A stretch of 64,000 nt of DNA from an uncultured Ignavibacteria bacterium (GTDB taxonomy: Bacteria; Zixibacteria; MSB-5A5; RBG-16-43-9), in the NCBI GenBank assembly GCA_964570765.1, contig CAZMZF010000011.1:3629-67628 (forward strand). Direction: 5' to 3'. Position numbers and translations under genes: made by a program. The notes under the pieces were generated by a model. It made no database searches and had not been told where the DNA came from. It worked only from the letters and a program-made list of their open reading frames with translations. This document shows positions 1,591-59,881 of the stretch, one piece after another; the stretch's first letter is position 1; each line of letters begins with the position of its first letter.

Positions 1591-3240
1591 CTATAGGTCT
1601 TTTCTTCTTGCACGCCAGCGTTTTACTATTCGGCTCACATCCATGTCTTTAATACCTTTAGCCCAACACTCGGCAAACTTAACATCTGCGCTGTCAGGTT
1701 GAGGGTCAGGAAAATCTACTATAACCCTCGTAGGCATTACTACAGAATCCCCAACAATAAGAGCTTCCCCAGTTCTGAGCGACGGTACCATGTCCATAAG
1801 TCCGGCCAACGAATCGGGAACAAGACGACGAACATAATTCTGGTCGTCAGGATTGGTGAGACGCATCACAATAAAGGTGTTGCACTGTGAAATAACGGTT
1901 TCGGAAAGTTCTTTTGGCCGTTGGCTCACGACCATTATTCCAATTCCATATTTCCGTCCCTCTTTTGCGAGCCGCTCTACCGCTATTTTCGCTGCTGAAA
2001 ACTTAGCTTCTGGGCGGTTAGGAATGTAGTTGTGTGCCTCCTCAAATACCATCAAAATGGGAAATTGTTTCCTGTCTGGATTCCAAAAATTAAACTCATA
2101 AACGACACGAGAAATAACCGACGCTACCACACTGACAGCTTCGAAAGGAATACCACTTAGATCAATCACAGTCATTCTCTTTCCAGTATCAATAGAAAGG
2201 TATTCTTTAAGCAATTGAGGAAGACTGGCGTTCCCAGAGTATCGTTTAGGTGAGAACATAAATCGAAACCTGGGGTCATTGGTCTTACTGTCGAAACGAA
2301 TCAAAAACCGATCAAAAACTCCGTTGAGTGGCCCCTTCTTCTTTCCAGAAGACGTGCCAGGCACCATCTCTGTGTTCCAATCGCGGATTTGCTGGAGCAT
2401 CCCCTGAAGATCAAAGTAAATGGGTGAATCAACGGTAACTGCATTGCCAAGTCCAAGTTTTTCCTCCTTATCAGTATTCTGTCGAGCCTGTAGGAGCGCA
2501 TCTCGGAGACCAGTGATCTGGTTATGAGCAGTAAACTCAGTTATATCAACAGCTAGGTCTTGAAATTCTTCAAAGTTTAGTAGCCAATAGGGCAACTCCA
2601 CTTTGTCGGCTTCAATGAGTTGAGCGTGGTTAGGAAATGCGTTTGCATATTCTCCATGCAAATCTATCACGAGTATATGTGTATCTGGATATTTGTCAAT
2701 TGTGTGCTGGAGGATACTTGCCACCGTGCAAGATTTTCCGCATCCCGTCGTCCCGAGAATGGCTGTATGTCTACCGAAAAAGCGATCTACGTGTATGAAT
2801 GCCCGTTGGTCTTCCGCCTGAGCCAAACAGGCAAAAGAGAATCCCTGACTGACGAATTCTGAGAAGATTTCTTTAAGTTCATCTAAACCAACCATTTTTA
2901 CTTTTTGCCCGACGTTCGGGTATATGGCAACCCCACGACTAAATTGCCCATTGTGACTTAGAGTGCCTATGAGGAGACACTCAGCTACTTTCTTGCTAAT
3001 AGTCTCGCCGGCAGCTTCTTGGCCCGGTTTCATTGAAGGCGTAACATCAAGCATGCGAATGTTCGCCACTGTCCCAATGATATTAAGGTCTCGGAAAGGG
3101 ATTTTTACATGTGAGCCCGGCTGACCTGGATAATAGTCACCGTCTAGTGGAACTGTGGTGTCGACCGTCAATTCGACTATAACACGGTTTCCACTAACCT
3201 CAATGACATAGCCGATTTCTGTTTCTGGAGTCTTTGCCAT
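1591..3240 (-). CDS. HerA-like FtsK/HerA-family ATPase, partner of the SIR2 protein in a SIR2-HerA defense pair
   Basis: An N-terminal HAS-barrel-like region is followed by Walker A 'ILGTTGCGKS' and a C-terminal 'VVSQRPKELSETVISQCNTFIVMRL' motif. The likely start is the ATG at 3240, preceded by a GGGGAG RBS, rather than 3270. The upstream SIR2 gene ends in TAA only 2 nt before it, consistent with translational coupling. Confidence 0.8.
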   Translation of the reverse strand: MAKTPETEIGYVIEVSGNRVIVELTVDTTVPLDGDYYPGQPGSHVKIPFRDLNIIGTVANIRMLDVTPSMKPGQEAAGETISKKVAECLLIGTLSHNGQFSRGVAIYPNVGQKVKMVGLDELKEIFSEFVSQGFSFACLAQAEDQRAFIHVDRFFGRHTAILGTTGCGKSCTVASILQHTIDKYPDTHILVIDLHGEYANAFPNHAQLIEADKVELPYWLLNFEEFQDLAVDITEFTAHNQITGLRDALLQARQNTDKEEKLGLGNAVTVDSPIYFDLQGMLQQIRDWNTEMVPGTSSGKKKGPLNGVFDRFLIRFDSKTNDPRFRFMFSPKRYSGNASLPQLLKEYLSIDTGKRMTVIDLSGIPFEAVSVVASVISRVVYEFNFWNPDRKQFPILMVFEEAHNYIPNRPEAKFSAAKIAVERLAKEGRKYGIGIMVVSQRPKELSETVISQCNTFIVMRLTNPDDQNYVRRLVPDSLAGLMDMVPSLRTGEALIVGDSVVMPTRVIVDFPDPQPDSADVKFAECWAKGIKDMDVSRIVKRWRARRKDL

Positions 3241-3242
3241 GG

Positions 3243-4319
3243 TTATTTCTCCCCCAGAGATGGAAGCCACTTCGCAAATTTTTCAAAAGCCCACAAATCT
3301 GTAACTTCACTTTGGTCGTTGCCATCAATAATCGTTCTTTCTTCATTTATTACACTGAGTTTAGGATGAGTAGACCTACAAGCAAGGGCGTCTATCGGCT
3401 CTTTGGAAAGCACCAAAAGAGAAAGACCCTTGTCGAGACCAGAAAATATATACTGGTTCAAGTGCTCATCCGCAAACCGATAACCAATACATATCAATAG
3501 ATTTGCTTCGTTAACCGCCGCACTAAATCTGCGAAAGAGCCAATCAAAAGGAGGACGGATGGATTCAGCATACTTGAGCCTCGACGGATAAATGATTAAT
3601 GAAGTCCTCTTTGATTCTAACGTTGGTTTTTCTTCGTAGAATTGGCCGTTAGATTCAAACCAACTGATTGATCCATGAAGTTTATATAGTCTAATGTGTT
3701 GAGCAGAGGGCTCAAAACGTGGGGTTTGCGCATGAGTTGTTGCCTTTCCAATGTCATAGTCAAAACAGCACGGATTCCATCGGCGGTGGAAAAAACCTTC
3801 GAACCCATTGATTGCAACTATATGCGATTCCTCACAAGCCAACTCTATCAACAAATCGTAGTTGGTTGTGAAGATTTGTACTGGAGGTGCCTTTTCCGCC
3901 GGTTCTGCCTCCCGACGACTTACTATGCGGAGCATGAAGTCCTTATGGTATTCCGTTGGGCCATCAACCTTCAAGATATTTTGGATACATTGACAAACAT
4001 CCTCGAAGGTCGTCTTAAACCGCTCTTTGTCACGATGTTCCGAACCTGCCCCACTCAAACGATGGTATAATTCAGAAAGAACCTCCTCTATGTTAGGATT
4101 TTCTATACTATTATCAGTCAAGGACCGTATGATCTCGTCAAACGTCGTACTGCGGGATACATTGTATAATTTGGATCGAACCAAATCCCTCAACTCAGAA
4201 ATACTTGGAAGCCCAGCACAGAACGATGCACCACCACCCAGAAGAAAAACAGTATTAGGTTCTCTTATCTTCTGTATTAGAGTTTCTTTCAATGTATGTT
4301 TCTTTGTCACTCCTATCAC
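3243..4319 (-). CDS. SIR2-like (DHS-like NAD-binding) protein, NADase effector of a SIR2-HerA system
   Basis: The N-terminal 'FLLGGGASFCAGLPSISEL' is a Rossmann-like SIR2 signature. At 358 aa it is the right size, and its stop sits directly upstream of the HerA start. Confidence 0.7.
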   Translation of the reverse strand: MIGVTKKHTLKETLIQKIREPNTVFLLGGGASFCAGLPSISELRDLVRSKLYNVSRSTTFDEIIRSLTDNSIENPNIEEVLSELYHRLSGAGSEHRDKERFKTTFEDVCQCIQNILKVDGPTEYHKDFMLRIVSRREAEPAEKAPPVQIFTTNYDLLIELACEESHIVAINGFEGFFHRRWNPCCFDYDIGKATTHAQTPRFEPSAQHIRLYKLHGSISWFESNGQFYEEKPTLESKRTSLIIYPSRLKYAESIRPPFDWLFRRFSAAVNEANLLICIGYRFADEHLNQYIFSGLDKGLSLLVLSKEPIDALACRSTHPKLSVINEERTIIDGNDQSEVTDLWAFEKFAKWLPSLGEK

Positions 4320-4553
4320 CTACTGATTCCCTATAATAATAAAGCCAAAATGTCGCCTAACTCGTTCATATCCGCAATTATTGCGTATATACCCCTGATT
4401 TTGGGGTTGTAGACGAACCTGTTTCGTTTATTCCGATTCTGGCTGAAGTTCCGATCCTACGGATCCGTTTCTCGGAGAAACGGATTTCACATCGTCTCTA
4501 CGAGCCGTAAGGCTTTTATCGGCCTGAGCCTCAGTCTGCCTAAGGCAGACAAA

Positions 4554-4640
4554 ATTGAATATATAAAGTGAACAGGGGTTGTCAATATAAATCCTAAAAT
4601 CAATGACGGATGACGAATTTCGAATAACGAATAAAAACAA
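4554..4640 (+). repeat. Family F composite repeat, full copy
   Basis: A roughly 87-bp element, 'attgaatatataaagtgaacaggggttgtcaatataaatcc...atgacggatgacgaatttcgaataacgaataaaaa'. It recurs at 1359 (partial) and as the reverse complement at 41959-42045. Confidence 0.8.
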
Positions 4641-4686
4641 AAGACTGCAGCCTTGCCACTCCCGTGCCAACGGAAGGTTGTCTTTT

Positions 4687-4782
4687 GTAGTTGCTCGATT
4701 CATCGAGCAAAAAGCCCAATGAATTGGGCAACTACTTTTAGCCTCGCCTTTGGGCGACCCTGAAAGGGTCGCACTACGAAAA
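4687..4782. repeat. Cluster of GC-rich palindromic elements (GTAG-REP family G plus family C hairpin)
   Basis: The outer stem is 'gtagttgc...gcaactac', enclosing the palindromes 'tcgattcatcga' and 'cccaatgaattggg'. It is followed by 'tagcctcgcctttgggcgaccctgaaagggtcgcactacgaa', the family C hairpin with a 3-nt loop. Confidence 0.75.
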
Positions 4783-20237: not shown

Positions 20238-20324
20238 ATCCTTTTATCTCCGCAATTCAGTTGAAGAGAGTGGTCGGGTCCAGAATGGATCCAATTGGAC
20301 AAGGGTGCCCAACCTACGTTCTAT

Positions 20325-20445
20325 TCCCTCTCCCCTCTACGAGCCGTAAAGCTCTTATCGGCTTGTGGGAGAGGGTTAGGGATATAGGGGGAAAAAATAA
20401 TTTCACCCTCCCCTTCCCCCCTCCATCAAGGGAGGGGACTCCTAA
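20325..20445. repeat. Family D palindromic element carrying a nested family E module
   Basis: The sequence reads 'ccctctcccct[ctacgagccgtaaagctcttatcggct]tgtgggagagggttaggga ... caccctcccct..ccatcaagggaggggac'. The bracketed module is absent from the 22637-22715 copy but occurs alone at 4495-4530. Confidence 0.75.
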
Positions 20446-21109: not shown

Positions 21110-21135
21110 AGTTTAGCTCTTTTTATCCAATTCTG

Positions 21136-21782
21136 TCAGACAGGAATGTCTGACTTACTTATAATGCATATTTTTCCACATAATATCTCTTCAAAATCAC
21201 CCCATTGATTTTCGTAAGATTTATCTTGAATATATTCAGGATTTTCCCGGTCATATTGCCATTGTAAAAGATTATACAAGATATATTGCCTGATAAGATT
21301 TAATTCGTTTTCATTTCTAATAACGTGTTCATAATAATTTCGTTGCCAAACAGAGATTCCAGGTGAGTTGTGAATAATATTAATTTGTTTAGTAACTGCA
21401 GATTTGAAAGAGCGTATAATAGTAGGCAATGAACCAATAACAGGTTTTCCGAACCGTTCAACTGGAGGGGCACGGCGCGCCGTGCCCCTACAATCTCGGT
21501 AATCATCACAATTCCGTGAAAATGATTGGGCATTACCATGAAAACATCTATCTTAACATCTTTTCTTAATCTTGCTGTTTTTCTCCATTCCTCTTCAACC
21601 ACATGACCATATTTATTTAACTTCATTACACCGTTAACTACCTTGCCAAAAATATATTCACTATTACGTGTACATATGGTTACAAAATACGCACCTGCCT
21701 GTGAATAATCATAATCCTTTAACCTGATTGAACGGCGGTGATATTTTTGGGGATTATATTTACTATCAGAAATTTTATCCAT
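21136..21782 (-). pseudogene. REP-associated tyrosine transposase (RAYT, IS200-like HuH Y1 transposase), frameshifted
   Basis: The N-terminal ORF carries 'YSQAGAYFVTICT' and the HuH motif 'MPNHFHGIV', then 'VGARRAVPLQ'. A second ORF in another frame carries 'SLPTIIRSFKSAVTKQIN...SVWQRNYYEHVIRNENELNLIRQYI', which includes the catalytic Tyr region. The frame break lies near 21450-21468. The gene is flanked by hairpins at 21133-21155 and 21825-21846. Confidence 0.7.
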
Positions 21783-21845
21783 AGAATTTCCTGATGTAGG
21801 GGCTTGATTTATCAAACCCTATTTGAGGCACGATGAATCGTGCCT

Positions 21846-22586
21846 CTACCTATGTATTGCCCTGGCAAAATCTTTTAAAATCTTATCATTCCCCTTTTCT
21901 TCTAAGGCATTCCCAATCACCACGAAGTTTGCCCCGGCTTTTACCTTAGCTTTAGCGGTTTCCGGGTCTCTTATTCCTCCGCCGATTATCAAAGGAACGG
22001 TGATAAATTTCTTCACCTCTTTTATCAAAGGATCAGGTACAGAACTCTCTGCCCCGGAGCCTGCATCCATAAAGATAAATTTCATCCCTAAATATTCTGC
22101 AGCAAGGGCATGAGCACAGGCAAGATCTGGCTTATTCGAAGGCAAGGGAAGGGTATCAGACATAAACTGAACCGAGGTCATCTTTCCGGATTCGATTAAC
22201 ATATATCCGGTCGGGATCGGTTCTAAACCAAATTCTTTTATCACCGGTGCGGCTTTCACCTGTTCGCCGATCAAAAGGTTTGGGTTTCTGCCGCTGATCA
22301 AGGAAAGAAACAAAACCGCATCTGCATATTTAGAGACCTGGTTGGCATTTCCTGGAAAGATTATTACCGGGAGTTTGACTTTCTCTTTTATCCTTTTAAT
22401 TGCCTCATCAAAATGGGTGGATAAAAGCAAGCTTGAGCCGACCAAGATTCCGTCTGCTCCCCCTTTCTCTGCCCGATAAGCTAATTCCGCAATCTCTTTG
22501 GGGCTTAACCTGTCCGGGTCCAATAGGACTAAGAAGCCTCCTTTTTTATCTTTGATAACCTTTAATAATCTCTGATAAACTTTCAA
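21846..22586 (-). CDS. Geranylgeranylglyceryl-phosphate synthase family protein (PcrB/GGGPS)
   Basis: 'GGADGILVGSS', 'FMDAGSGA' and 'PLIIGGGIRDPETAKA' are the (beta/alpha)8 GGGPS/PcrB signatures. Confidence 0.75.
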   Translation of the reverse strand: MKVYQRLLKVIKDKKGGFLVLLDPDRLSPKEIAELAYRAEKGGADGILVGSSLLLSTHFDEAIKRIKEKVKLPVIIFPGNANQVSKYADAVLFLSLISGRNPNLLIGEQVKAAPVIKEFGLEPIPTGYMLIESGKMTSVQFMSDTLPLPSNKPDLACAHALAAEYLGMKFIFMDAGSGAESSVPDPLIKEVKKFITVPLIIGGGIRDPETAKAKVKAGANFVVIGNALEEKGNDKILKDFARAIHR

Positions 22587-22636: not shown

Positions 22637-22715
22637 GTTCCCTCTCCCCTTGTGGGAGAGGGTTAGGGAGAGGGGTTCACCCTCCCCTAACCCCTCCCAT
22701 CAAGGGAGGGGAAGT
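22637..22715. repeat. Family D palindromic element (un-interrupted copy)
   Basis: 'ccctctccccttgtgggagagggttagggagaggggttcaccctcccctaacccctcccatcaagggaggggaagt'. Confidence 0.75.
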
Positions 22716-25387: not shown

Positions 25388-25442
25388 TGGAGTACAAACC
25401 TTAAGGTTTATGAAAAAGTAAAGCTAAAGCTTTACACTCCAG
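25388..25442. repeat. MITE-like element family A (short copy)
   Basis: 'tggagtacaaaccttaaggtttatgaaaaagtaaagctaaagctttacactccag'. The terminal inverted repeats are 'tggagtRYaaa'/'tttRYactcca'. Confidence 0.8.
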
Positions 25443-26088
25443 TATTTTCTTCTGAAACCTCCACATCTTTTATTTTCAAAACCTGTTTAACAATCTCATA
25501 CGAAAATCCTCTTCTTAATAAGAAACTCATCATTCTTCTTTTAGCCATATTTTTATCCAGGTTCTCATATCTTTTCTTTCTTTTCTCTAAAAGATTTTTA
25601 GCTAAATTTAACTCCTCTTCTTCGTCTTCAAAATATTCCTGCAGGACTTTTTCAATCGTCTCATCTTTTATCCCTTTTTTCCACAATTCCTGCTTTAAAA
25701 GAATCTTTCCCTGAGGCTTATTGGAGATTTTATCTCTGACAAAAGTAGAGGCGAAGTTAGAGTCATCTATAAGATTTATCCTTTTTAAATCTTTTATCAC
25801 CTCATCTATTAAGTCATTTGCAAATTCTTTTTTCTTTAACTTATCCCTGACCTCCTTTTCGCTTCTCATCCGGTAAGATAAGAATTTCAGTGCTGCATCT
25901 TTCGATTCTTTTTTTACCTCAGACTCAAGTATCTGGTCAATTTTCTTCTGGTCAAGCTCCTCCCCAATTTTTAACCCATATTTATATAAAACCTCTTCAT
26001 CCAGACCAAAGGCAAACTCTCCATCTAAAAAAATTGACCTTCTTTTCGGGTTTTTCTTCTGTGATTCTATTTTGGTTATGCGAGGCAT
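25432..26088 (-). CDS. recX: Recombination regulator RecX
   Basis: RecX-like three-helix repeats in a K/E-rich protein. It sits in the conserved recA-recX-alaS arrangement. Confidence 0.8.
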   Translation of the reverse strand: MPRITKIESQKKNPKRRSIFLDGEFAFGLDEEVLYKYGLKIGEELDQKKIDQILESEVKKESKDAALKFLSYRMRSEKEVRDKLKKKEFANDLIDEVIKDLKRINLIDDSNFASTFVRDKISNKPQGKILLKQELWKKGIKDETIEKVLQEYFEDEEEELNLAKNLLEKRKKRYENLDKNMAKRRMMSFLLRRGFSYEIVKQVLKIKDVEVSEENTGV

Positions 26089-31120: not shown

Positions 31121-31169
31121 AATCGTATCGTGGAGTTCGTAGTGCGAGGCCTCAAGGTCTTGAGACTTT

Positions 31170-31250
31170 TAGCCTCGCCTAAGCGACCCTGTCCTACGGT
31201 GGCTACGCCAGACGTAGTCTCCGTTATTAGGAAAAGGGTCGCGCAACGAA
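31170..31250. repeat. Family C hairpin with GTAG-REP (family B) nested in its loop
   Basis: 'tagcctcgcctaagcgaccct[gtcctacggtggctacgccagacgtagtctccgttattaggaaaa]gggtcgcgcaacgaa'. The 4737-4782 copy has only 'gaa' in the loop. Confidence 0.8.
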
Positions 31251-31316
31251 AACTTTCGCTCTCAGTTGGTCTCCAGACCAACTGAGTCACTTCTCGCGGA
31301 CACCTTTCTTTGATTT

Positions 31317-33998: not shown

Positions 33999-34076
33999 AA
34001 GTAAATTTTGGAGTATAAACCTTTAAGTTTATCAGAATGAATCTTCTGTTAATGGATTAAAGTAAAGCTAAAGCTT
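33999..34076. repeat. MITE-like element family A
   Basis: 'tggagtataaaccttt...aaagtaaagctaaagctttacactccag'. Its termini match those of 25388-25442. Confidence 0.8.
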
Positions 34077-34086
34077 TACACTCCAG

Positions 34087-35196
34087 TCATTCTTCCCAGG
34101 AGTTATAATTTTTCGGAGATCCCTCAGGAAATTGTATAAATCCTCTTCCCTCGAAAAAAATAAGCTCCATTCCGAAGATGGATGAATCGAAATTTAATCT
34201 ATTCAATATCTCCTGAGCCATCTTCCCTTCAGCCACCTTAGGAGATCGGAGGAAGGTTACCAGCTCAATCGGAATTATCTCCGCTTGAAGAAGATTTTTA
34301 CCCCGCAGGGTAATTTTTAACATAATGCTCTGGTTATTCTTTAAGTCTTTCTGGTCAAATACAAAATTTCCCAGGCTATAGGCGATTAGTTTTCCTTTAT
34401 ATAATTCTATCCCCTGAAACGTATGAGGATGATGTCCCACCACAATATCTGCACCGCAGTCAATTACCATACGGGCTAAGCTTTTCTGATATTCTGAGGG
34501 GAAATCTTCATATTCAATCCCCCAGTGAAAAGAGACTACAACCAAATTCACATCCTTTTTCGCTTTTTCTATATCTTCTATTATCCAGGAAGATTTAATT
34601 TTTGCAACTCCAGGACTATCTTTTCCTGCATAGACAGCACCAGGAGATAAATCGTAACCCAGGAAAGCAATCTTAAGATCACCTAAATCAAAGATAGCAG
34701 GTTTTCTGGCTTCTCTTATATTTTCCCCTGCACCGATAATCTGGAAATTATTTTGTTCTAAAAGTTTGAGTGTCTCCTCAAAAGCCTTTCTGCCATAATC
34801 ATAAGAATGGTTATTAGCCAAGTTGAGCACATCAAATCCAGCATATTTTAATCCTTTTATCGACTCAGGGTTCCCCCGGAAAGCATAGATCTGGTCTCCT
34901 TTCATCCCTCTTTTGGAAATAGGAGATTCCAGATTTCCGAAAGTAATCTCTGCAGAATTGGTTATATTAGCGATATTTTTAAAAGGATAAAGGTATCCTT
35001 CTTTTTTCATATACAAATCTACACCCCGGGAAAGCATAATATCACCAGTGAAAATTAAACTGTGTTCTCTGGGAAAAAAGATATTTTCCTGCCCGGAAGA
35101 ATTTTCTATCTGGGGGTTGAAAGGTGATAGAAAAAAGAGTAAGAGGAAAAAAGAGAGAAGAAAGAACTTTTTAAACGGATGTTTTGTAGAAGCCAT
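34087..35196 (-). CDS. CapA-family (PGA-synthesis-type) metallophosphatase
   Basis: It has a signal peptide and calcineurin-like motifs ('GNLE', 'NNHSYD', 'VVGHHPH'). Confidence 0.75.
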   Translation of the reverse strand: MASTKHPFKKFFLLSFFLLLFFLSPFNPQIENSSGQENIFFPREHSLIFTGDIMLSRGVDLYMKKEGYLYPFKNIANITNSAEITFGNLESPISKRGMKGDQIYAFRGNPESIKGLKYAGFDVLNLANNHSYDYGRKAFEETLKLLEQNNFQIIGAGENIREARKPAIFDLGDLKIAFLGYDLSPGAVYAGKDSPGVAKIKSSWIIEDIEKAKKDVNLVVVSFHWGIEYEDFPSEYQKSLARMVIDCGADIVVGHHPHTFQGIELYKGKLIAYSLGNFVFDQKDLKNNQSIMLKITLRGKNLLQAEIIPIELVTFLRSPKVAEGKMAQEILNRLNFDSSIFGMELIFFEGRGFIQFPEGSPKNYNSWEE

Positions 35197-38339: not shown

Positions 38340-40799
38340 TCAAAGAAAATTTAATTGCACAGAGCCCTTAGGGTTAGCTTTGGGGATTCTATAAAGGTTT
38401 TCTATATGTGAAGGCTCTATTCCTTTTTTTCTTTTATTGTCTTCAAAAATTGTTTCAAGAGCATGATATAATATAAATTTCCAATTATACTTAGTTATTT
38501 GTTCTTGTAAGATAGGTTCCTGTAATCGTCTATTCAATAACCTCTCTCTTTCATTTGGAATAATGATTACTCTTTTCACATCTAGGTTTGGTATACTTGT
38601 GCCTCTTATTATTGCTTCTGTTATACCCGTTGTATTCTCGACTTCAAATTCCCAATACACTTTACCCTGCTTATACCATATGCAATCAATATTTTTTACT
38701 CTATCCAATCTTTCCGGTAAGATATTAACTAATTTAAAATCTTTTTCATCACATAAATCTGCTAATTTTTCTCCATCGTAAGTTTCGTTTTGCTCTTTTA
38801 AACCGACCCAGATTTTAAACCCCATTTTTTTACCAAGAACTGCCAGGTAATATATAAACTTACCATGCTCCTTCGCACGTCGGACTACACTTTGCCGTAA
38901 TCTCCACTTTCCATCTGAGGTCTTCTCAGCATATTCACCTAAAATATCCTTCACATTCTGAGTATCTGGCGTTAGAGCATTAGGAAAATTAATAAGTATC
39001 TCTTGTAAAGCATCATCGAAAGTCACTTTAATTTGTCGATTCAAAACATTTATTACAGCCTTTTCTACTCTTTCGCGTAAAGGAATTTTTTCTAAATGCG
39101 GAACACTCGAAGGATCTTTAAACCACCATTCATACCCTTTGATTTTACTTCTTTCATCTTTGACCGGGATTAATACAAACTCCTTATCAAGATGTTCTTT
39201 AAGGATCTGGTCAAATTTTCTTTGCCCAGCAAGCAGAACTCCATGTTGGTTTAGAACAGGATATATACCATTTAAAATATATGTATAAGCTGTAGGCTCA
39301 CCTCTCTCTGCAATTATTTTTGTAGTAGTATTTACTACTACTTTCTCATACAGCTCGACGCTGGCATTATTATTCTCTTGGATCTCCATCCGTTTCTCAG
39401 GTTTTCTGAATCTCAAATAATAATCACCTACAGCGCTTCCGTAAGGCCTTAATAAGGCAAGATTGGAGGCTCTTGCAGGCGGCTGGTATATAATTTTCTC
39501 TAAGTTAAATCCGGCTAAGACAATGGCTTGAATAATGCTATTAAAAATCTTAATGTCAGTACTATGGAATGTAACTGTGAGATATTTCGCGGGTTTTAAG
39601 ACTTCATAGATTCTAGAGAAGGCCGCATAAAGCATTTTATGATAATATTCAAAATCCTTTTTTTGCCATTTGTTTATTGTTATCTCGTCTCCAAACTCTA
39701 ATTCAAAATCTTCATCCTTAGGACCTTTTAACCAAGAAGTCCATAATACGCTTAATTCAAAATATTGAATAGCTCCTCCATAAGGGGGATCGGTAAAACA
39801 ATAATCTATACTTCCCTTTGGAATGTATTCATCAAGTTCCAAGGCAGATTTTGTAAGTAAAAAGATATTTCTGTCCTTCTTAAGTTCTGCAAAGTTTTTT
39901 GCTTCCTTATATACTCGTATAACTTCTTGAGAATCTGATTTCCCCCTTAGAATACCTTGTCTTCCCTCAATTGAGCTTTCAAATAAATTCCAAACATTTG
40001 ATTCCATATATAAAGGAGGCACCCAAAAACTATTCATAGCCCAGAATGAACTAAATTGTCTACTCGGTCTAACAGGTGTTAATTTGCTGGCTAAATGAAG
40101 TATAGAGCTAAAGGAAAAAAGAAAGATATCTTTCATTTTTCTTGATTTAATCTTACTTATTTGATTAAATAAAATAGAAAGTGCTAAAAGATTTCTTTTA
40201 GTAAACAAATCTGCTATGGATTCGCCGGCTTTTCTCGCCTGATTAAATGTTATACCTTTTGGAAACTGGTATTTTGGATACCAAAATTTTATTCGTTGAC
40301 CTTCAACTTCTGAATATTTCTTGAAATCTTCTTTTCTCGGTTTTTTCGAACCTTTTAAACCACATTTTGGGCACTCAAACATTATTCTGCTGATTTTATT
40401 CTTATTCCAATGACAACAGATTATTGTTACTGCATTCTTACACTTTGGACATGAGGTAGCATATAATACATCAATCTGGTGTTTTATATTTTTTCTAATA
40501 TGCTCGTATGTAGCTTCTATCTCTCGGAGATCAGTTGGCTGAGATGTCATCTTAGTTATGAAAATAGCCATTGGATCTAAATCTATAGCTACAGCTTTTC
40601 TATTTAATCTCAGAGACTCAATAGCAGTTACACCTGAACCAACAAAAGGGTCTAAAACAATGTCTCCTTTTTTGGAATATGTTTTGATATATTCCGCAAC
40701 CACATTATGTGGTTTTCTCGCCCACCACTTATGCATCAAGTACATTGGAGTATGGGCTTTAGAAACTAAAGCATGATTTATTTGTTGTACTTCAGACAT
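38340..40799 (-). CDS. N6-adenine/N4-cytosine DNA methyltransferase with a large C-terminal extension
   Basis: 'YLMHKWWARKPHNV' plus 'LDPFVGSGVT' (AdoMet motif I) lie near the N-terminus, and 'CFTDPPYG' (motif IV) is about 290 aa further on. Roughly 400 aa of unassigned sequence follow. No cognate restriction endonuclease gene is adjacent. Confidence 0.8.
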   Translation of the reverse strand: MSEVQQINHALVSKAHTPMYLMHKWWARKPHNVVAEYIKTYSKKGDIVLDPFVGSGVTAIESLRLNRKAVAIDLDPMAIFITKMTSQPTDLREIEATYEHIRKNIKHQIDVLYATSCPKCKNAVTIICCHWNKNKISRIMFECPKCGLKGSKKPRKEDFKKYSEVEGQRIKFWYPKYQFPKGITFNQARKAGESIADLFTKRNLLALSILFNQISKIKSRKMKDIFLFSFSSILHLASKLTPVRPSRQFSSFWAMNSFWVPPLYMESNVWNLFESSIEGRQGILRGKSDSQEVIRVYKEAKNFAELKKDRNIFLLTKSALELDEYIPKGSIDYCFTDPPYGGAIQYFELSVLWTSWLKGPKDEDFELEFGDEITINKWQKKDFEYYHKMLYAAFSRIYEVLKPAKYLTVTFHSTDIKIFNSIIQAIVLAGFNLEKIIYQPPARASNLALLRPYGSAVGDYYLRFRKPEKRMEIQENNNASVELYEKVVVNTTTKIIAERGEPTAYTYILNGIYPVLNQHGVLLAGQRKFDQILKEHLDKEFVLIPVKDERSKIKGYEWWFKDPSSVPHLEKIPLRERVEKAVINVLNRQIKVTFDDALQEILINFPNALTPDTQNVKDILGEYAEKTSDGKWRLRQSVVRRAKEHGKFIYYLAVLGKKMGFKIWVGLKEQNETYDGEKLADLCDEKDFKLVNILPERLDRVKNIDCIWYKQGKVYWEFEVENTTGITEAIIRGTSIPNLDVKRVIIIPNERERLLNRRLQEPILQEQITKYNWKFILYHALETIFEDNKRKKGIEPSHIENLYRIPKANPKGSVQLNFL

Positions 40800-40828
40800 A
40801 ATCTACTCAATCTGGAGCCTATTATCCC

Positions 40829-41517
40829 CTACATCAAATTCCTTTCCCTCAAACTCACATAACTTTCATTTCCGATGATTATATGATCCAAGACATCTAT
40901 CTCCATTAATTTCCCGACCTCTACTATTTTGCGAGTAACTTTCAGGTCATTTTCAGAAGGGTCCGGGTCGCCAGAGGGATGATTATGTGCTAAAATCAAA
41001 GCAGCAGCCCCATATTCGATTGCCGGGCGAAAAACCTCTCTGGGTTGAACTATATTAAAAGTCAAACTGCCGATGGAGATAACCTCATCGTGGATTAAGC
41101 GATTTCTGATATTTAAGTATAATCCCCGGAAATGTTCCTTCTGCAGTTTTCTCATCTCCTCTAAATATTTATACACATCCTCGGTGTCCTTATAGTTGGA
41201 ATTCTACCTTTATCCTCAAGGAAAAATCTCCTGCCCAGTTCAAACACAGCCACTATCTGGCAGGCTTTTACCTGAGGAATCCCTAAGGTATTCATCAGCC
41301 TGCCTACATCTTTTTCCTGGGCAATCGCTTTTGAGCCATAGTCTTTGATTATCCTCTCAGATAGCTCGATTACATTTAAGCCCTTATACCCGGTGTTCAA
41401 AATAATAGAAAGAAGCTCACTATTCCTCAGAACATCCGGACCATATTTTATTAACTTTTCCCTGGGCTTCTGATCCTCGGGTAGCTCTTTTATTCTGATC
41501 TGATAATTATCTTCCAT
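40829..41517 (-). pseudogene. radC: radC (JAB/MPN-domain protein), split by a frameshift
   Basis: ORF 41161-41517 encodes the RadC N-terminal HhH-type region. ORF 40829-41176 encodes the JAMM motif 'HNHPSGDPDPS'. The two overlap in different frames near 41161-41176. Confidence 0.7.
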
Positions 41518-41842
41518 GACTATATCTTCTAATGCAAAGCTTCAACAAAGTTAATAAATAATTTGGGAAAAGGAAAGAAAAAAATCATTCACAGCAGATA
41601 AAACTGATTAAGCTGATTTTTCGAGCGGATTATCTGCTTAATTAAACTAATCAGCTGTGAGGAATTTTTAGTTATAGGGAGGGGCTTGTTCCCTCCCGAA
41701 ATTTGGGAGTTCCCAAGGAACTCCACTACAAAACTTGTTGTCACATTGTAGTTACCCAATTCATTGGGTAATTTATTTTCGGTAGGTCGGACATTCCTAT
41801 CTGACCCTGGCGAACAGACAAGAATGTCTGTTCTACCAGTTT

Positions 41843-41935
41843 TTGCTCGATGAATTGAGCAACTACAAAACATCCATCCGTTGCCATCCTAGAAACGGAG
41901 ACTACGTCTGGCGTAGCCACCGTAGTCTAGGACAG
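41843..41935. repeat. Reverse-orientation copies of GTAG-REP families G and B
   Basis: 'ttgctcgatgaattgagcaactac' is followed by 'cggagactacgtctggcgtagccaccgtag', the reverse complement of 'ctacggtggctacgccagacgtagtctccg'. Confidence 0.75.
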
Positions 41936-41958
41936 GAGTTGTAACGCTACAGTCATTT

Positions 41959-42045
41959 TATTTTTTATTCGTTATTCAAAATTCGTCATCGGTCATTTAG
42001 TTTAAGATTTATATTGACAATCTTTTACTACCTCATATATTCAAT
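41959..42045 (-). repeat. Family F composite repeat, reverse-complement copy
   Basis: The reverse complement reads 'attgaatatatgaggtagtaaaagattgtcaatataaatcttaaa...atgaccgatgacgaattttgaataacgaataaaaaataa', matching 4554-4640. Confidence 0.8.
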
Positions 42046-42293
42046 CTTCAATAAATCGCCTAACCCCGCTTAGGCGGGGGCGGAGGAACCATAAAATTCT
42101 AGGGCGAATTTTTCCTAAATGGGAGATAGGGTTAACTCTTGACCCGAGCCTTTAAGCTAACTCCGCAGGCGTAAAGAGAGGAGTGAAGATCTGAATAGTA
42201 TAGACCACTGGGTTTTCATTGGTCTTTTTTCTTTGATTATATTTTTTCATTGTAGTTGTCTAATTTATGGGGCTATTTAAACTGCTGGAATTG

Positions 42294-56142: not shown

Positions 56143-56424
56143 TATTCAAATCAGTTGATAGTTTTGCCACTGGATGTGAGCAGGCTGATGATATCTCGGC
56201 AGTTGTGATCCATAGGCTATAGTTTATCAGTTTAGGAGGGGCTTTTATGTTATATCTATCTACCTATCCAAGAAAAAAGGGGTTCTGCCTTCCGGGCAAA
56301 AGAAAGTTTTTACTCCTGTTTGTGATTCCATTTATTATTCTTTTATTGAAACGTGGGGATACTAATGCCGGTGCATTTGTAAAAGGAGAGGGGATATGTA
56401 GTGCGTCCCGCGCCGGCGGCGGGA

Positions 56425-56530
56425 TTAGCCTCGCTTAAGCGACCCTGTCCTACGGTGGCTACGAGCCAGCCCGCCCGTAGGGCGCCAGACGTAGTCTCCG
56501 TTATTAGGAAAAGGGTCGCACTACGAATCC
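56425..56530. repeat. Family C hairpin carrying GTAG-REP (family B) plus a further nested palindrome
   Basis: 'tagcctcgcttaagcgaccct[gtcctacggtggctacga{gccagcccgcccgtagggcgc}cagacgtagtctccgttattaggaaaa]gggtcgcactacgaa'. Confidence 0.8.
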
Positions 56531-56583
56531 TAATCGTTATATGATATCCGTAATCCGTCATTTTTTTACAATATATGAATTGA

Positions 56584-56647
56584 TCGGAGTGCAAGAGCTT
56601 GCTCTTGCATTCTATCTAATATGCATCAGCAAGCTGATGCACTCCAT
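56584..56647. repeat. Hairpin element with GGAGTGCA/TGCACTCC termini
   Basis: 'ggagtgcaagagcttgctcttgcattctatctaatatgcatcagcaagctgatgcactcc'. The GGAGTGCA start is also seen at 1147, 17260 and 22603. Confidence 0.6.
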
Positions 56648-56657
56648 CTTTGTCTAT

Positions 56658-58055
56658 TTATAAGACATGAATTGGTCTTCCAGCGGTTTTTAGAGCGCTT
56701 TCCCGAACTGCTTCGGCTAAGGTGGGATGGGCATGGATGGTTTCAATCAGGTCTTTTAGTTTAGTCCCCATCTTTATTCCCAGGGCAAGCTCAGCTATAA
56801 GGTCTGTGCCTCGATTGCCCATTATTATACATCCTAAAATTTTATCAGATTTCTCATCTGCTATTATTTTTACCATCCCTTCGGTCTCATCCTCGGCTAA
56901 GGCTCTTCCGTTGGCTATGAAGGGGAATCGGCCGGTTTTTATTTTAAAACCTTTATCTAAAGCTTCCTTTTCGGTCAAACCTGCTCCACCGATCTCCGGA
57001 TAGGTAAAGATGCATCTGGGCACCGCGGTATAGTCCATCTTTAAATTCCCACCTAAGGCATTCTCAACTGCACATTCTGCTTCCATTGAGGCTACATGAG
57101 CTAAAAGGTAGCCTCCGATGCAATCCCCGGCTGAATATATACCTTTGAGGTTGGTTCTTAAATATTCATCTACTTTTATTTTATCATTTTCCTGCTCTAT
57201 ACCAATCCCTTTCAGATTTAATCCGGAGGTATAAGCCTTTCGACCTACGGAAATTAGTACTTTTTTAGATAAGATTTCGAGTTCCCCTTTCGGAGTTGAG
57301 ATTTTCACTTTCCTGGTTTCAGCATCTTTTGAGTAGATACCAGTAACTTTGGATTCCGTATAGATTTTTATCCCTTCTTTTTCCCATTTCCTTCGGAGCA
57401 AAGAGACTATCTCCTCATCCTCGCCGGGAAGTATCTGGGGGAGCATCTCCACAATGGTTACCTTAGTGCCGAAGGAATGATAGAGTGAGGCAAATTCACA
57501 ACCGATATATCCACCTCCCACGATCAGAAGGGTTTTTGGCACTTCCTCAAAGGATAAAGCTTTAGTGCTGTCAACCACACCATCTAAATCTGTTCCTGAA
57601 ATGGGCAGATCGATTGGAACCGAGCCGGTTGAGATCAGAATTTTATCTGCTTGTAGCTTTTCTATCCCCCCATCGGCTTTTTTTATCAATAATGTTTTCT
57701 CATCTAAGAATGATGCAGAACCTGAGATTAGATTTACCTTTCTTTCCTTCAGAAGAAATTTTACTCCATTGACCAATCTTCTCACTACCTGTTCTTTTCT
57801 CCTCATCACCTGATCCCAGTTTAAACTAGTGAAACCGGAATCTATGCCCCAGCTTGAAGATTTCTTCATAAGGGTATAAAGGTGAGCGGTAGAGGTTAAG
57901 GTTTTAGTAGGGATACAGCCGACATTTAAGCAAGTGCCGCCAACCTCCTTTTTCTCAATCAGAGTGACTTCTGCACCCAATTGAGCTCCCCTTATAGCCC
58001 CCACATACCCGGCCGGTCCTCCCCCGATTATGGCTAATTTTTCCCGATTGGACAT
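56658..58055 (-). CDS. lpdA: Dihydrolipoyl dehydrogenase
   Basis: Contains 'IIGGGPAGY' and the redox-active disulfide 'GGTCLNVGCIPTK'. Confidence 0.9.
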   Translation of the reverse strand: MSNREKLAIIGGGPAGYVGAIRGAQLGAEVTLIEKKEVGGTCLNVGCIPTKTLTSTAHLYTLMKKSSSWGIDSGFTSLNWDQVMRRKEQVVRRLVNGVKFLLKERKVNLISGSASFLDEKTLLIKKADGGIEKLQADKILISTGSVPIDLPISGTDLDGVVDSTKALSFEEVPKTLLIVGGGYIGCEFASLYHSFGTKVTIVEMLPQILPGEDEEIVSLLRRKWEKEGIKIYTESKVTGIYSKDAETRKVKISTPKGELEILSKKVLISVGRKAYTSGLNLKGIGIEQENDKIKVDEYLRTNLKGIYSAGDCIGGYLLAHVASMEAECAVENALGGNLKMDYTAVPRCIFTYPEIGGAGLTEKEALDKGFKIKTGRFPFIANGRALAEDETEGMVKIIADEKSDKILGCIIMGNRGTDLIAELALGIKMGTKLKDLIETIHAHPTLAEAVRESALKTAGRPIHVL

Positions 58056-59744: not shown

Positions 59745-59881
59745 TAGATAATCTGGAGTGTAAACCTTTCCTACGGTGGCTACGCCAGACGTAGTCTCCG
59801 CTTATAGAACAGGTTTACCAGATAAAGCTAAAGTCTTCACCAGGATCCTGTGGACAAGACCTTGATGGCTTTATATTCCAG
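59745..59881. repeat. MITE-like family A element with a GTAG-REP (family B) inserted
   Basis: 'tggagtgtaaacctttc[ctacggtggctacgccagacgtagtctccg]cttatagaac...aaagctaaagtcttcaccaggatcctgtggacaagaccttgatggctttatattccag'. Compare 17312-17423, which lacks the insert. Confidence 0.8.

Follow-up and report, generated by a model that had tools for sequence, protein, structure and literature searches.

The 64-kb stretch of DNA analyzed here in its entirety (hereafter called the window; contig CAZMZF010000011.1 from an uncultured member of the Zixibacteria) has a G+C content of ~40% and carries chromosomal genes that include hutU, pfk, gap, pgk, tpi, alaS, recA, recX, cinA, dprA, lpd, and dinG. Among named homologues, the closest to its proteins belong to candidate division Zixibacteria. 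When only perfectly paired stems of at least 7 bp with loops of 3 to 8 nt are counted, the window contains 81 hairpins compared to 11 to 33 in block shuffles, and GTAG or CTAC adjoins the stem in 16 of the window hairpins compared to 0 to 4 in the shuffles. Such features bring to mind repetitive extragenic palindromes (REPs). This study concerns a small palindromic element, named M, that sits in the loops of these REP-type hairpins, the related elements M-mini and N, and a gene resembling those for REP-associated tyrosine transposases (RAYTs).

M has the form TCCTA-CGGTGGCTACG-CCAGA-CGTAGTCTCCG followed by 8 or 9 nt that end in GGA, for a total of 40 to 41 nt, and its ends form a terminal inverted repeat (TIR) of 5 bp (TCCTA/TAGGA). 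A 31-nt module that had been noticed when the sequence was first read (the original prediction) is the core of this element. The module is intact, with 0 or 1 mismatch, at 31193, at 41896 on the minus strand, and at 59770, whereas none is expected from 100 shuffles. A fourth copy at 56448-56509 is split by the extra palindrome AGCCAGCCCGCCCGTAGGGCG at 56464-56484, just as had been described.

Hairpin A (GCGACCCT...AGGGTCGC followed by RCWACGAA, which provides a GTAG head on the other strand) is present in three copies in the window, in agreement with the original prediction. The copy at 4754-4780 on the plus strand is empty. Its stem-loop (4754-4772) reads GCGACCCT-GAA-AGGGTCGC, is followed by ACTACGAA (the GTAG head on the minus strand), and folds with a free energy (dG) of -10 kcal/mol and a z-score of -5.56. 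The copy at 31183-31242 (arms at 31183-31190 and 31235-31242) is filled by a 41-nt short form of M (31192-31232, plus strand) that splits the GAA loop after its G. Although the module had been correctly placed in this loop, the proposed unit of 31 nt plus ttattaggaaaa must be revised to 41 nt because the tail TTATTAGGA belongs to M and pairs with the 5´ TCCTA. The third copy at 56439-56519 (arms at 56439-56446 and 56512-56519) is filled by a 62-nt long form of M (56448-56509, plus strand), in which the 21-nt tip insert L3 (56464-56484, plus strand) places a small hairpin, CGCCC-GTA-GGGCG, between CTACG and CCAGA.

Both filled copies of hairpin A lie inside an outer stem (GTAGTGCG...CGCNCNAC), which results in 4 to 5 layers. 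The composite at 31136-31250 (plus strand; outer stem TTCGTAGTGCG...CGCGCAACGAA) encloses a GTAG hairpin (31139-31178) along with hairpin A, and the composite at 56398-56527 (plus strand; outer stem GTAGTGCG...CGCACTAC) encloses the hairpin TCCCGC..GCGGGA along with hairpin A. Folded as single strands, composites of this kind form co-axially stacked hairpins (z-scores of -3.3 to -6.7) in which the host stems are lengthened by the inserts. This is the case both for the region 31133-31253 (dG of -33.9, z-score of -6.65) and for a hairpin filled by element N at 20322-20375 (z-score of -6.08).

We expanded the number of M representatives by scanning metagenomes for the pattern CGGTGGCTACG-N(0-30)-CCAGACGTAGTCTCCG, which yielded 88 JGI contigs totaling 705 kb, and the statistics on M given below cover the window plus these contigs. 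Some of the contigs (identified by L numbers) are near-identical or syntenic to the window, as with L133, whose flanks are 99% identical, and L203, which carries a kinase orthologue. In total, 95 copies of M were found at 76 distinct sites. There are 71 short copies, and the remaining 24 carry an insert of 21 or 22 nt whose position is always between CTACG and CCAGA. Either orientation of M is found, and the genes that border its spacers can be divergent, convergent, or tandem. An autonomous parent of M was sought by examining half-sites more than 40 nt apart and other sequences starting with TCCTACGG, and only related small modules were recovered. Likewise, M was not found in the viral contigs searched, and a scan of genome contigs for the 14-mer CTACGGTGGCTACG gave 120 chance loci (L001-L120), none of which has the full module. 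Four hutU-syntenic relatives (L121-L124, ~93% amino acid identity) lack M, hairpin A, and N in 20 kb, and their spacers contain other GTAG hairpins, hence they provide no clean empty sites.

M has a strong bias toward hairpin loops. Fifty-one of the 76 sites (67%) are located in a loop closed by 6 bp or more of perfect stem, compared to 3.8% of 5000 random positions that were scored identically, and a tolerance for mismatches would raise the observed fraction. Precise insertion into hairpin loops, as originally proposed, is thus supported well beyond hairpin A. The loop sites include two window copies that had been interpreted differently. The copy at 41896 was thought to occur on its own, but it occupies the loop of an F4-family hairpin, GTAGCGTTGCCA...TGGCAACG, that is degenerate (41879-41950, minus strand, GTAGCGTTACAA...TGGCAACG; M at 41887-41932, 46 nt). 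A paralogous F4-type hairpin at 4647-4673 (plus strand, GCAGCCTTGCCA-CTCCCG-TGCCAACGG) is empty, and it resides inside a duplication (4551-4713 and 41840-42048) that makes these two loci an empty/filled pair within the window. The copy at 59.77 kb was assigned to a miniature inverted-repeat transposable element (MITE), but the surrounding sequence is another host hairpin, GGAGTG-TAAACCT...AGGTTTAC (59755-59818, plus strand), with the short form of M (59769-59809) in its loop. Empty counterparts of this hairpin (GTGTAAACCTTCAGGTTTAC) are present in L198, L209, and L211.

Two identical 29-nt GGAGTG-headed hairpins (GTAAAGC-TAAA-GCTTTAC-ACTCC) at 25415-25443 and 34059-34087, each directly 3´ of a gene, are unoccupied members of the hairpin family in which M resides at 59.77 kb.

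When all copies were lined up by M, the flanking sequences resolved into at least 11 discrete host hairpin families. Written as left flank, M, and right flank, these are A (GCGACCCTG, M, AAAGGGTCGC), F4 (GTAGCGTTGCCAyTCCyr, M, TGGCAACG), F5 (GTAGCGTCCTCAyTCCnn, M, TGAGGACG), F10 (GGTAGCCGCAAG, M, CTTCAGCTTGCG), F6 (GGAGTGyrAACCTT, M, AGGTTTrC), Ct (CCCTCTCCTT, M, AAGGAGAGGG), F7 (GGTAGAACAGrCATT, M, CyTGyCTGTTC), F8 (GGACAGGCTTCCAG, M, CCTGTCC), F9 (GTAGCGTCCGG, M, ..CCGGACG), and Cc (TCCCTCCCC.., M, ..GGGGAGGGA), together with F12, where the M site is 2 nt 3´ of GGTCGGGC...GCCCGACC. For 25 of the 76 sites, the exact empty junction (a 20-mer consisting of the 11 nt to the left and the 9 nt to the right of M) exists elsewhere, and these junctions are unoccupied copies of the respective host hairpin family. 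Empty and filled copies thus share exact flanks, which was the test set in advance for the original prediction.

The modal boundaries of M are the T of TCCTA and a position 8 to 9 nt past CTCCG, with a precision of 0 to 2 nt, and therefore the insert is 40 to 41 nt, or 61 to 63 nt in the long form. Comparison of empty and filled junctions revealed no target-site duplication at M. The bases to the left of M vary (CCTG, CCTT, CCAG, CCGG, CATT, CAAG, CCTA, and CCCA), and M can enter the loop at either edge (5´ or 3´) or in the middle. M-type elements are also located at the border between stem and loop and occasionally just 3´ of a hairpin. Because the left flanks vary, the targeting of M looks structure-directed, judging from these sequence comparisons, rather than “sequence-targeted” as first suggested. 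The TCCTA/TAGGA repeat stacks on the host stem, so each insert lengthens the hairpin and makes a new tip loop. M-type elements exhibit precise, duplication-free presence and absence at the tips of pre-existing hairpins.

Allele comparisons, made by flank-to-flank BLAST plus alignments, uncovered one orthologous locus that exists in three states, with flanks that are 91-96% identical. This locus is empty in L141 (GTAGCGTTGCCATTCCC, then ATGGCAACG), carries the short form of M as a 40-nt insert in L148, L149, and L197, and carries the long form as a 61-nt insert in L165. At the 56.4-kb site, the window has the long form whereas the orthologous site in L133 has the short form (flanks ~99% identical), and two further long/short pairs (L177/L167 and L155/L132) each involve a different variant of the 21/22-nt insert. 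The states of these elements are polymorphic between closely related populations, in keeping with the recent movement that was originally proposed.

The surroundings of the 56.4-kb composite differ between assemblies in other ways. A contig from Logan ERR4334734 (L126), when compared with 56395-56530 of the window, follows the lpd 3´ flank precisely up to the CTACGAA head, beyond which it has another hairpin (GCGATCCTGAAATGATCGC) and other upstream sequence. It represents a strain variant or else an assembly-graph chimera and was not used as evidence. Two other Logan contigs beside lpd stop inside M. In addition, an 84-nt element at 56583-56666 consists of two GGAGTG-headed hairpins in inverted orientation and is bordered by an 8-nt direct repeat (ATGAATTG) at 56575-56582 and 56667-56674. 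It is missing from L133 (flanks ~99% identical) and sits in the last lpd codons, where it creates a new C-terminus of VL-stop instead of IL-stop. Unlike M, this element looks like a classical MITE with target duplication.

The second element, N (CTCTACGAGCCGTAAAGCTTTTATCGGC, ~27 nt), is found in the loops of at least 4 hairpin families. One N copy (20337-20363, CTACGAGCCGTAAAGCTCTTATCGGCT) is in the loop of the hairpin CCCTCTCCC...GGGAGAGGG at 20326-20375 (plus strand), and an empty copy of this hairpin at 22640-22662 (plus strand) has the loop CTTGT. The relationship that had been described for this family (called D) is therefore accurate: the first hairpin equals the second plus a 27-nt loop insert, and a related copy of the insert is present at 4498-4524 (plus strand), where there is no obvious enclosing hairpin. 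The other N hosts are CCCCTCC...GGGAGGGG (L149 and L190), GGAACAGGCA...TGCCTGTTC (L196 and also L218), and GTCCGCC...GGCGGAC (L148). Every copy of N seen is preceded by C. On the 3´ side, the next base is T at three sites, two of which belong to the three sites with a known empty counterpart, and the remaining copies have C or A there.

M-mini is a 22-nt element with the general form TCCTA-CGGATCCG-TTnnnnGGA, represented in the window at 4455-4476 (plus strand) by TCCTA-CGGATCCG-TTTCTCGGA. It has its ends in common with M and is without the inner CTACG...CGTAG hairpin. We identified 16 distinct copies, which take the same position as M in host families A, F7, F8, F10, and F12. Other mini-modules were noted in L134 (1376), L165 (5439), L195 (5429), L148 (8001), and L211 (8850), with examples that include TCCTACGGAGGCTTCGCTCCTCGTAGAGG fused to N, and CCTACGGGGACTACGTCCGGCGTAGCC. 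This assortment indicates that CTACG...CGTAG-type units constitute a larger family than M, M-mini, and N.

The tip of M behaves differently from its tail. The 21/22-nt insert at the tip has compensatory variants of its small hairpin, such as CGTCC...GGACG. The variant of the 3´ tail of M is tied to the host family, with 0 of 5000 permutations reaching the observed association, which argues that composites of host plus M are inherited and copied as units after a founding insertion. In contrast, whether M is long or short does not depend on the host family and varies at four orthologous loci, and thus the tip of M appears to turn over faster than the composites spread. Simple slippage between the best direct repeats (GCCAG) would not yield the short form that is observed. 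A directed tip event or an exchange between M copies fits better.

A candidate for the enzyme that might act on M and N is encoded by a RAYT-like gene of the Y1/HUH type in the window (21136-21782, minus strand; 1-nt deletion near 21492). This gene was located by using tblastn with an E. coli YafM sequence, which served as a lead only, and its product was joined across the frameshift. The NCBIfam model for REP-associated tyrosine transposases (NF047646, REP_Tyr_transpos) gives an E value of 1e-16 with 58-60 bits, which is below the cutoff of 80, and the Pfam Y1_Tnp model gives 27.9 bits for the intact L153 orthologue (cutoff 23) and 18.6 bits for the repaired window copy. Among PDB entries, E. 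coli TnpA-REP (4ER8) is the best match, with an alignment that spans the HUH and W-Q...E-H-x-I-R-N...Y-x-x-x-N-P motifs (Y(I/V)xxN aligned). The two histidines and the tyrosine are invariant when four orthologues are aligned with YafM.

The genomic context of this gene points in the same direction. It is bordered by pcrB and by a SIS-domain gene in the window, in L153 (5394-6110), in L218 (20271-20945 of a 2.72-Mb contig), and in L220 (20181-20861), and there are two copies in the ~770 kb searched. Its vertically conserved position and low copy number fit a RAYT. The window copy is flanked by GTAG-type hairpins at 21825-21846, ~21795-21820, and 21135-21154, and the one at the 3´ end is F7-like. 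The variable linker of the coding region also contains GTAG palindromes, of which the window copy has one (21466-21489) and L153 has three. These palindromes account for 10-35 added or altered residues between the HUH and Tyr motifs. No other transposases were detected in Pfam and NCBIfam scans of the open reading frames of the window. We infer that the RAYT-like gene is a candidate for the enzyme of M and N, although the link is circumstantial. The presence of a RAYT-like gene in the window fits the HuH/RAYT-type mobilization of the original prediction, but the frameshift in this gene and the ends of M, which do not follow the cleavage rule of a known RAYT (see below), speak against it.

By sequence definition, the host hairpins qualify as GTAG-tagged REPs. 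They are small (~20-40 bp), extragenic, multicopy palindromes whose families recur across 89 contigs, and they carry GTAG at the stem end, with the heads GTAGTGCGACCCT in A, GTAGCG... in F4 and F5, and GGTAGAACAG... in F7, as well as in F9 and F10, and with GGAGTG as a variant head. M itself has CTACG/CGTAG in its inner stem, M-mini has neither, and N has CTACGA at one end. Similarly, the gene appears to have both the sequence features of a RAYT (a Y1/HUH homologue with the HUH motif and the catalytic Tyr) and the contextual ones (single-copy, vertical, and REP-flanked in the window, L153, L218, and L220).

The whole therefore resembles the E. coli REP/BIME-RAYT and Pseudomonas REPIN-RAYT systems (PMC3479197, PMC3116915, PMC5581495), which likewise have short extragenic GTAG-headed hairpins in many copies and a single-copy, vertically conserved, hairpin-flanked Y1/HUH gene with HUH and Tyr motifs. 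Some REPs also form inverted pairs here, such as the pair at 4686-4736 (GTAGTTGC...GCAACTAC). However, unlike in those systems, many stem families coexist, the mobile units are 22-62 nt with internal GTAG/CTAC and are nested within other REP loops to a depth of up to 4-5 layers, and the RAYT scores below the NCBIfam cutoff and contains REP hairpins inside its coding region.

The closest precedent for nesting is the work of Di Nocera et al. 2013, who reported GTAG- and CGTC-tagged REPs “inserted within palindromes,” including GTAG-23 of Thermomicrobium roseum, GTAG-15 dimers of Anabaena variabilis, and CGTC-1 dimers of Halothiobacillus neapolitanus (PMC3733652). The target palindrome of T. roseum also exists unoccupied in hundreds of copies, the GTAG-3 and GTAG-14 families have alternative self-complementary loops and length variants, and REPs are cited there as targets of insertion sequences (PMC3733652). 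These REPs are like ours in that a REP-type element is enclosed by another palindrome and in that loop length varies within a family. Yet those cases, which were mentioned in passing, pair a single REP family with a single target palindrome in each genome and do not include orthologous empty/filled alleles, multi-family targeting, a third or fourth layer, or loop-position statistics.

Other mobile elements share only some of these characteristics. The IS200/IS605 elements and the miniature PATEs, as well as TnpA of IS608 and ISDra2, are similar in their use of Y1/HUH chemistry on single-stranded DNA, hairpin ends, and seamless insertion and excision. Their insertion site lies 3´ of a fixed tetra- or pentanucleotide, their length is ~100 nt or more, and their left and right ends are distinct, whereas M has variable left flanks, is 40 nt, and forms one nearly symmetric hairpin, such that M and PATEs agree only in the absence of a duplication. 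Nor does M combine TIRs with a fixed-length target-site duplication as classical (DDE-type) MITEs do. Nested MITEs, which are common in plants and reported in some cyanobacteria, also consist of non-autonomous elements in one another, but they have longer TIRs and target-site duplications and no requirement for a hairpin loop. IS1397 and ISKpn1 (IS3 family) and elements of the IS110 family insert into the loop or center of REP hairpins. Unlike M, these are autonomous and kilobase-size, encode their own transposase, and, for the IS3 members, generate target duplications. We found no literature on such repeats in Zixibacteria and no paper on loop-targeted REP nesting. What is new here is that one mini-element enters many unrelated hairpins, that nesting reaches 4-5 layers, that sister elements share ends, and that orthologous loci have empty, short, and long alleles.

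The best joint explanation, and in our judgment a probable one, is that mini-elements in REP hairpin loops result from structure-guided integration, a RAYT that acts in trans, copying of composites, and turnover at the tip. The intergenic DNA of the Zixibacteria source genome would be crowded with GTAG-headed REP-type hairpins of many families, on which a few tiny non-autonomous palindromic elements, namely M (40-41 nt), M-mini (22 nt), and N (~27 nt), would be superimposed. Integration would take place on single-stranded, extruded hairpin DNA and would be guided by structure with no fixed target sequence. Catalysis would be provided in trans by a single-copy Y1/HUH enzyme, for which the RAYT-like gene is the only candidate seen. 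Such chemistry is suggested because seamless, duplication-free joints and single-strand targets are a signature of IS200/IS605 and TnpA-REP (PMC3479197). After the founding insertion, the composite of host plus M would be copied as a unit, which would explain why the tail variants of M track the host family. The tip of M could then change quickly among the mini, short, and long (+21/22 nt) states, either by a loop-directed event or by exchange between copies. Given that the RAYT-like gene is frameshifted in the population represented by the window, the elements there may now be immobile.

A broader proposal, which we advance tentatively and regard as possible but somewhat doubtful, is that hairpin loops are the natural target of REP-type mini-elements, such that a Y1/HUH enzyme of the RAYT kind recognizes an extruded single-stranded hairpin from its shape and, with no need for a particular target sequence, splices another hairpin into its loop. 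If so, multi-layer palindromes would arise in which each layer turns over independently, and these Zixibacteria would hold a readable natural record of REP movement. To our knowledge, no REP/RAYT system has yet been seen to carry out the movement step. The in vitro activities documented for E. coli TnpA-REP extend only to cleavage and strand transfer (PMC3479197).

A number of observations weigh against the best joint explanation. Only one clean orthologous empty/filled pair was found for the whole of M, and the empty site cannot be defined at 31.2 kb because the orthologous spacer in L218, L219, and L220 is unrelated sequence. Several of the 76 distinct M sites are orthologues from different samples and hence are non-independent. 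Moreover, the M copies were gathered with an exact-match pattern, so the conservation of the core is not independent and M-free contigs lie outside the sample. The window copy of the RAYT-like gene carries a 1-nt deletion relative to an intact L220 allele that is 96% identical, and it is probably a pseudogene because the deletion is identical in two other assemblies. M has GTAG/CTAC inside its inner stem and not at its end as in canonical REPs. Its junctions (N↓TCCTA...AGGA↓N) also lack the C↓T cleavage dinucleotide that E. coli TnpA-REP requires (PMC3479197), which speaks against carrying the E. coli model over unchanged. The cleavage rule is compatible with the 5´ junction of N at every copy and with its 3´ junction at some copies only. 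Finally, in the ~770 kb searched, the 21/22-nt insert was found 26 times inside M and 0 times outside it, and the inner hairpin of M was never found on its own in the same contig set. The original prediction correctly describes the third layer in position and sequence, but the insert is a recurrent tip variant of M and not a proven independent element. Independent mobility of the inner layers is likewise unproven, and insertion at these layers is not distinguishable from exchange or deletion.

These last findings favor a rival explanation in which modules are exchanged rather than transposed, whether by gene conversion, by template switching at stalled forks, or by HUH-type cleaving and rejoining between hairpins, so that filled and empty forms would be recombinants rather than insertions of free elements. 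The same explanation can accommodate the recurrence of mini, short, and long tips within host families that have host-specific tails, the lack of linkage between long/short state and host family, the four orthologous loci that differ at the tip only, and the strand transfer carried out in vitro by E. coli TnpA-REP (PMC3479197). However, exchange needs homology, yet M is present in at least 11 unrelated host families at junctions with nothing in common, and the L141 allele is cleanly without the entire 40-nt unit. We consider module exchange unlikely, though it is the most plausible of the alternatives to structure-guided integration.

More improbable still is a deletion series, in which long multi-layer palindromes are ancestral and their centers are repeatedly lost through hairpin-stimulated slippage or SbcCD-type processing. 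The instability of long palindromes in bacteria is well established, individual loci show precise polymorphism between short and long forms, and the inserts of the long forms have diverged with compensatory changes that suggest age. But deletion between the best direct repeats (GCCAG...GCCAG) would give CTACGAGCCAGACGTAG when the sequence observed is CTACGCCAGACGTAG, and only a 2-nt CG repeat fits. Furthermore, M-mini (CGG-A-TCCG) is no simple deletion product of M, and this scheme cannot account for one M inside many unrelated hairpins or for the abundance of empty host hairpins as families themselves. It is very hard to believe that M plus its closing stem is instead a functional structured RNA or a protein-binding DNA motif, with outer helices that covary under selection. 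The elements are intergenic and the core of M is invariant while the enclosing helix always pairs, but this invariance is partly a product of the exact-match search, and the outer helices are discrete repeat families with many copies that have no M. At one locus, M is present in some alleles and absent from another, the elements are not restricted to one orientation or to one of the three gene arrangements, and an Rfam search of the window gave no match at the M elements.

With regard to REP biology, we know of no account of how REPs and REPINs are copied or choose new sites. The empty/filled site pairs with exact boundaries in this lineage point to hairpin loops as the target, and structure-guided integration into single-stranded loops is a concrete hypothesis that can be tested with oligonucleotides. 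These pairs also suggest that units as small as 22-41 nt can act as separate modules that are mobile or exchangeable and that the repeat-rich spacers of uncultured phyla can be dissected from metagenomes alone. In practical terms, nested palindromes break short-read assemblies, as seen from the Logan contigs that end inside them, and they coincide with rearrangement breakpoints.

One such set of breakpoints involves the inverted duplication at 4551-4713 and 41840-42048 (160-200 bp, 82-97% identical), which lies within REP-rich spacer. The ~37-kb segment that it bounds is inverted relative to L121, where hutU adjoins the permease gene, and the block from the permease gene to OmpH has a third arrangement in L220. 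Thus, rearrangement breakpoints coincide with hairpin clusters. The region 38340-41517 (minus strand) also differs from relatives. In the window, radC consists of two overlapping open reading frames (40829-41176 and 41161-41517), compared to a single gene for 229-235 amino acids in L218 and L220. An 819-amino-acid protein with a DNA methylase domain (38340-40799) is encoded between radC and a Memo/AMMECR1 gene, and it is not at that position in L218 and L220. A SIR2-family gene adjoins a HerA-type helicase gene at 1591-4319 (minus strand), at the edge of a region that differs from relatives. These genes look like a SIR2-HerA defense pair, although the SIR2 match is to an anti-phage-associated model and falls below its cutoff. 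The sole match in the Rfam search of the window is a c-di-AMP riboswitch at 42047-42185 (plus strand, 79.5 bits), located upstream of genes for an APA-family permease, Usp, and TrkA-domain proteins.

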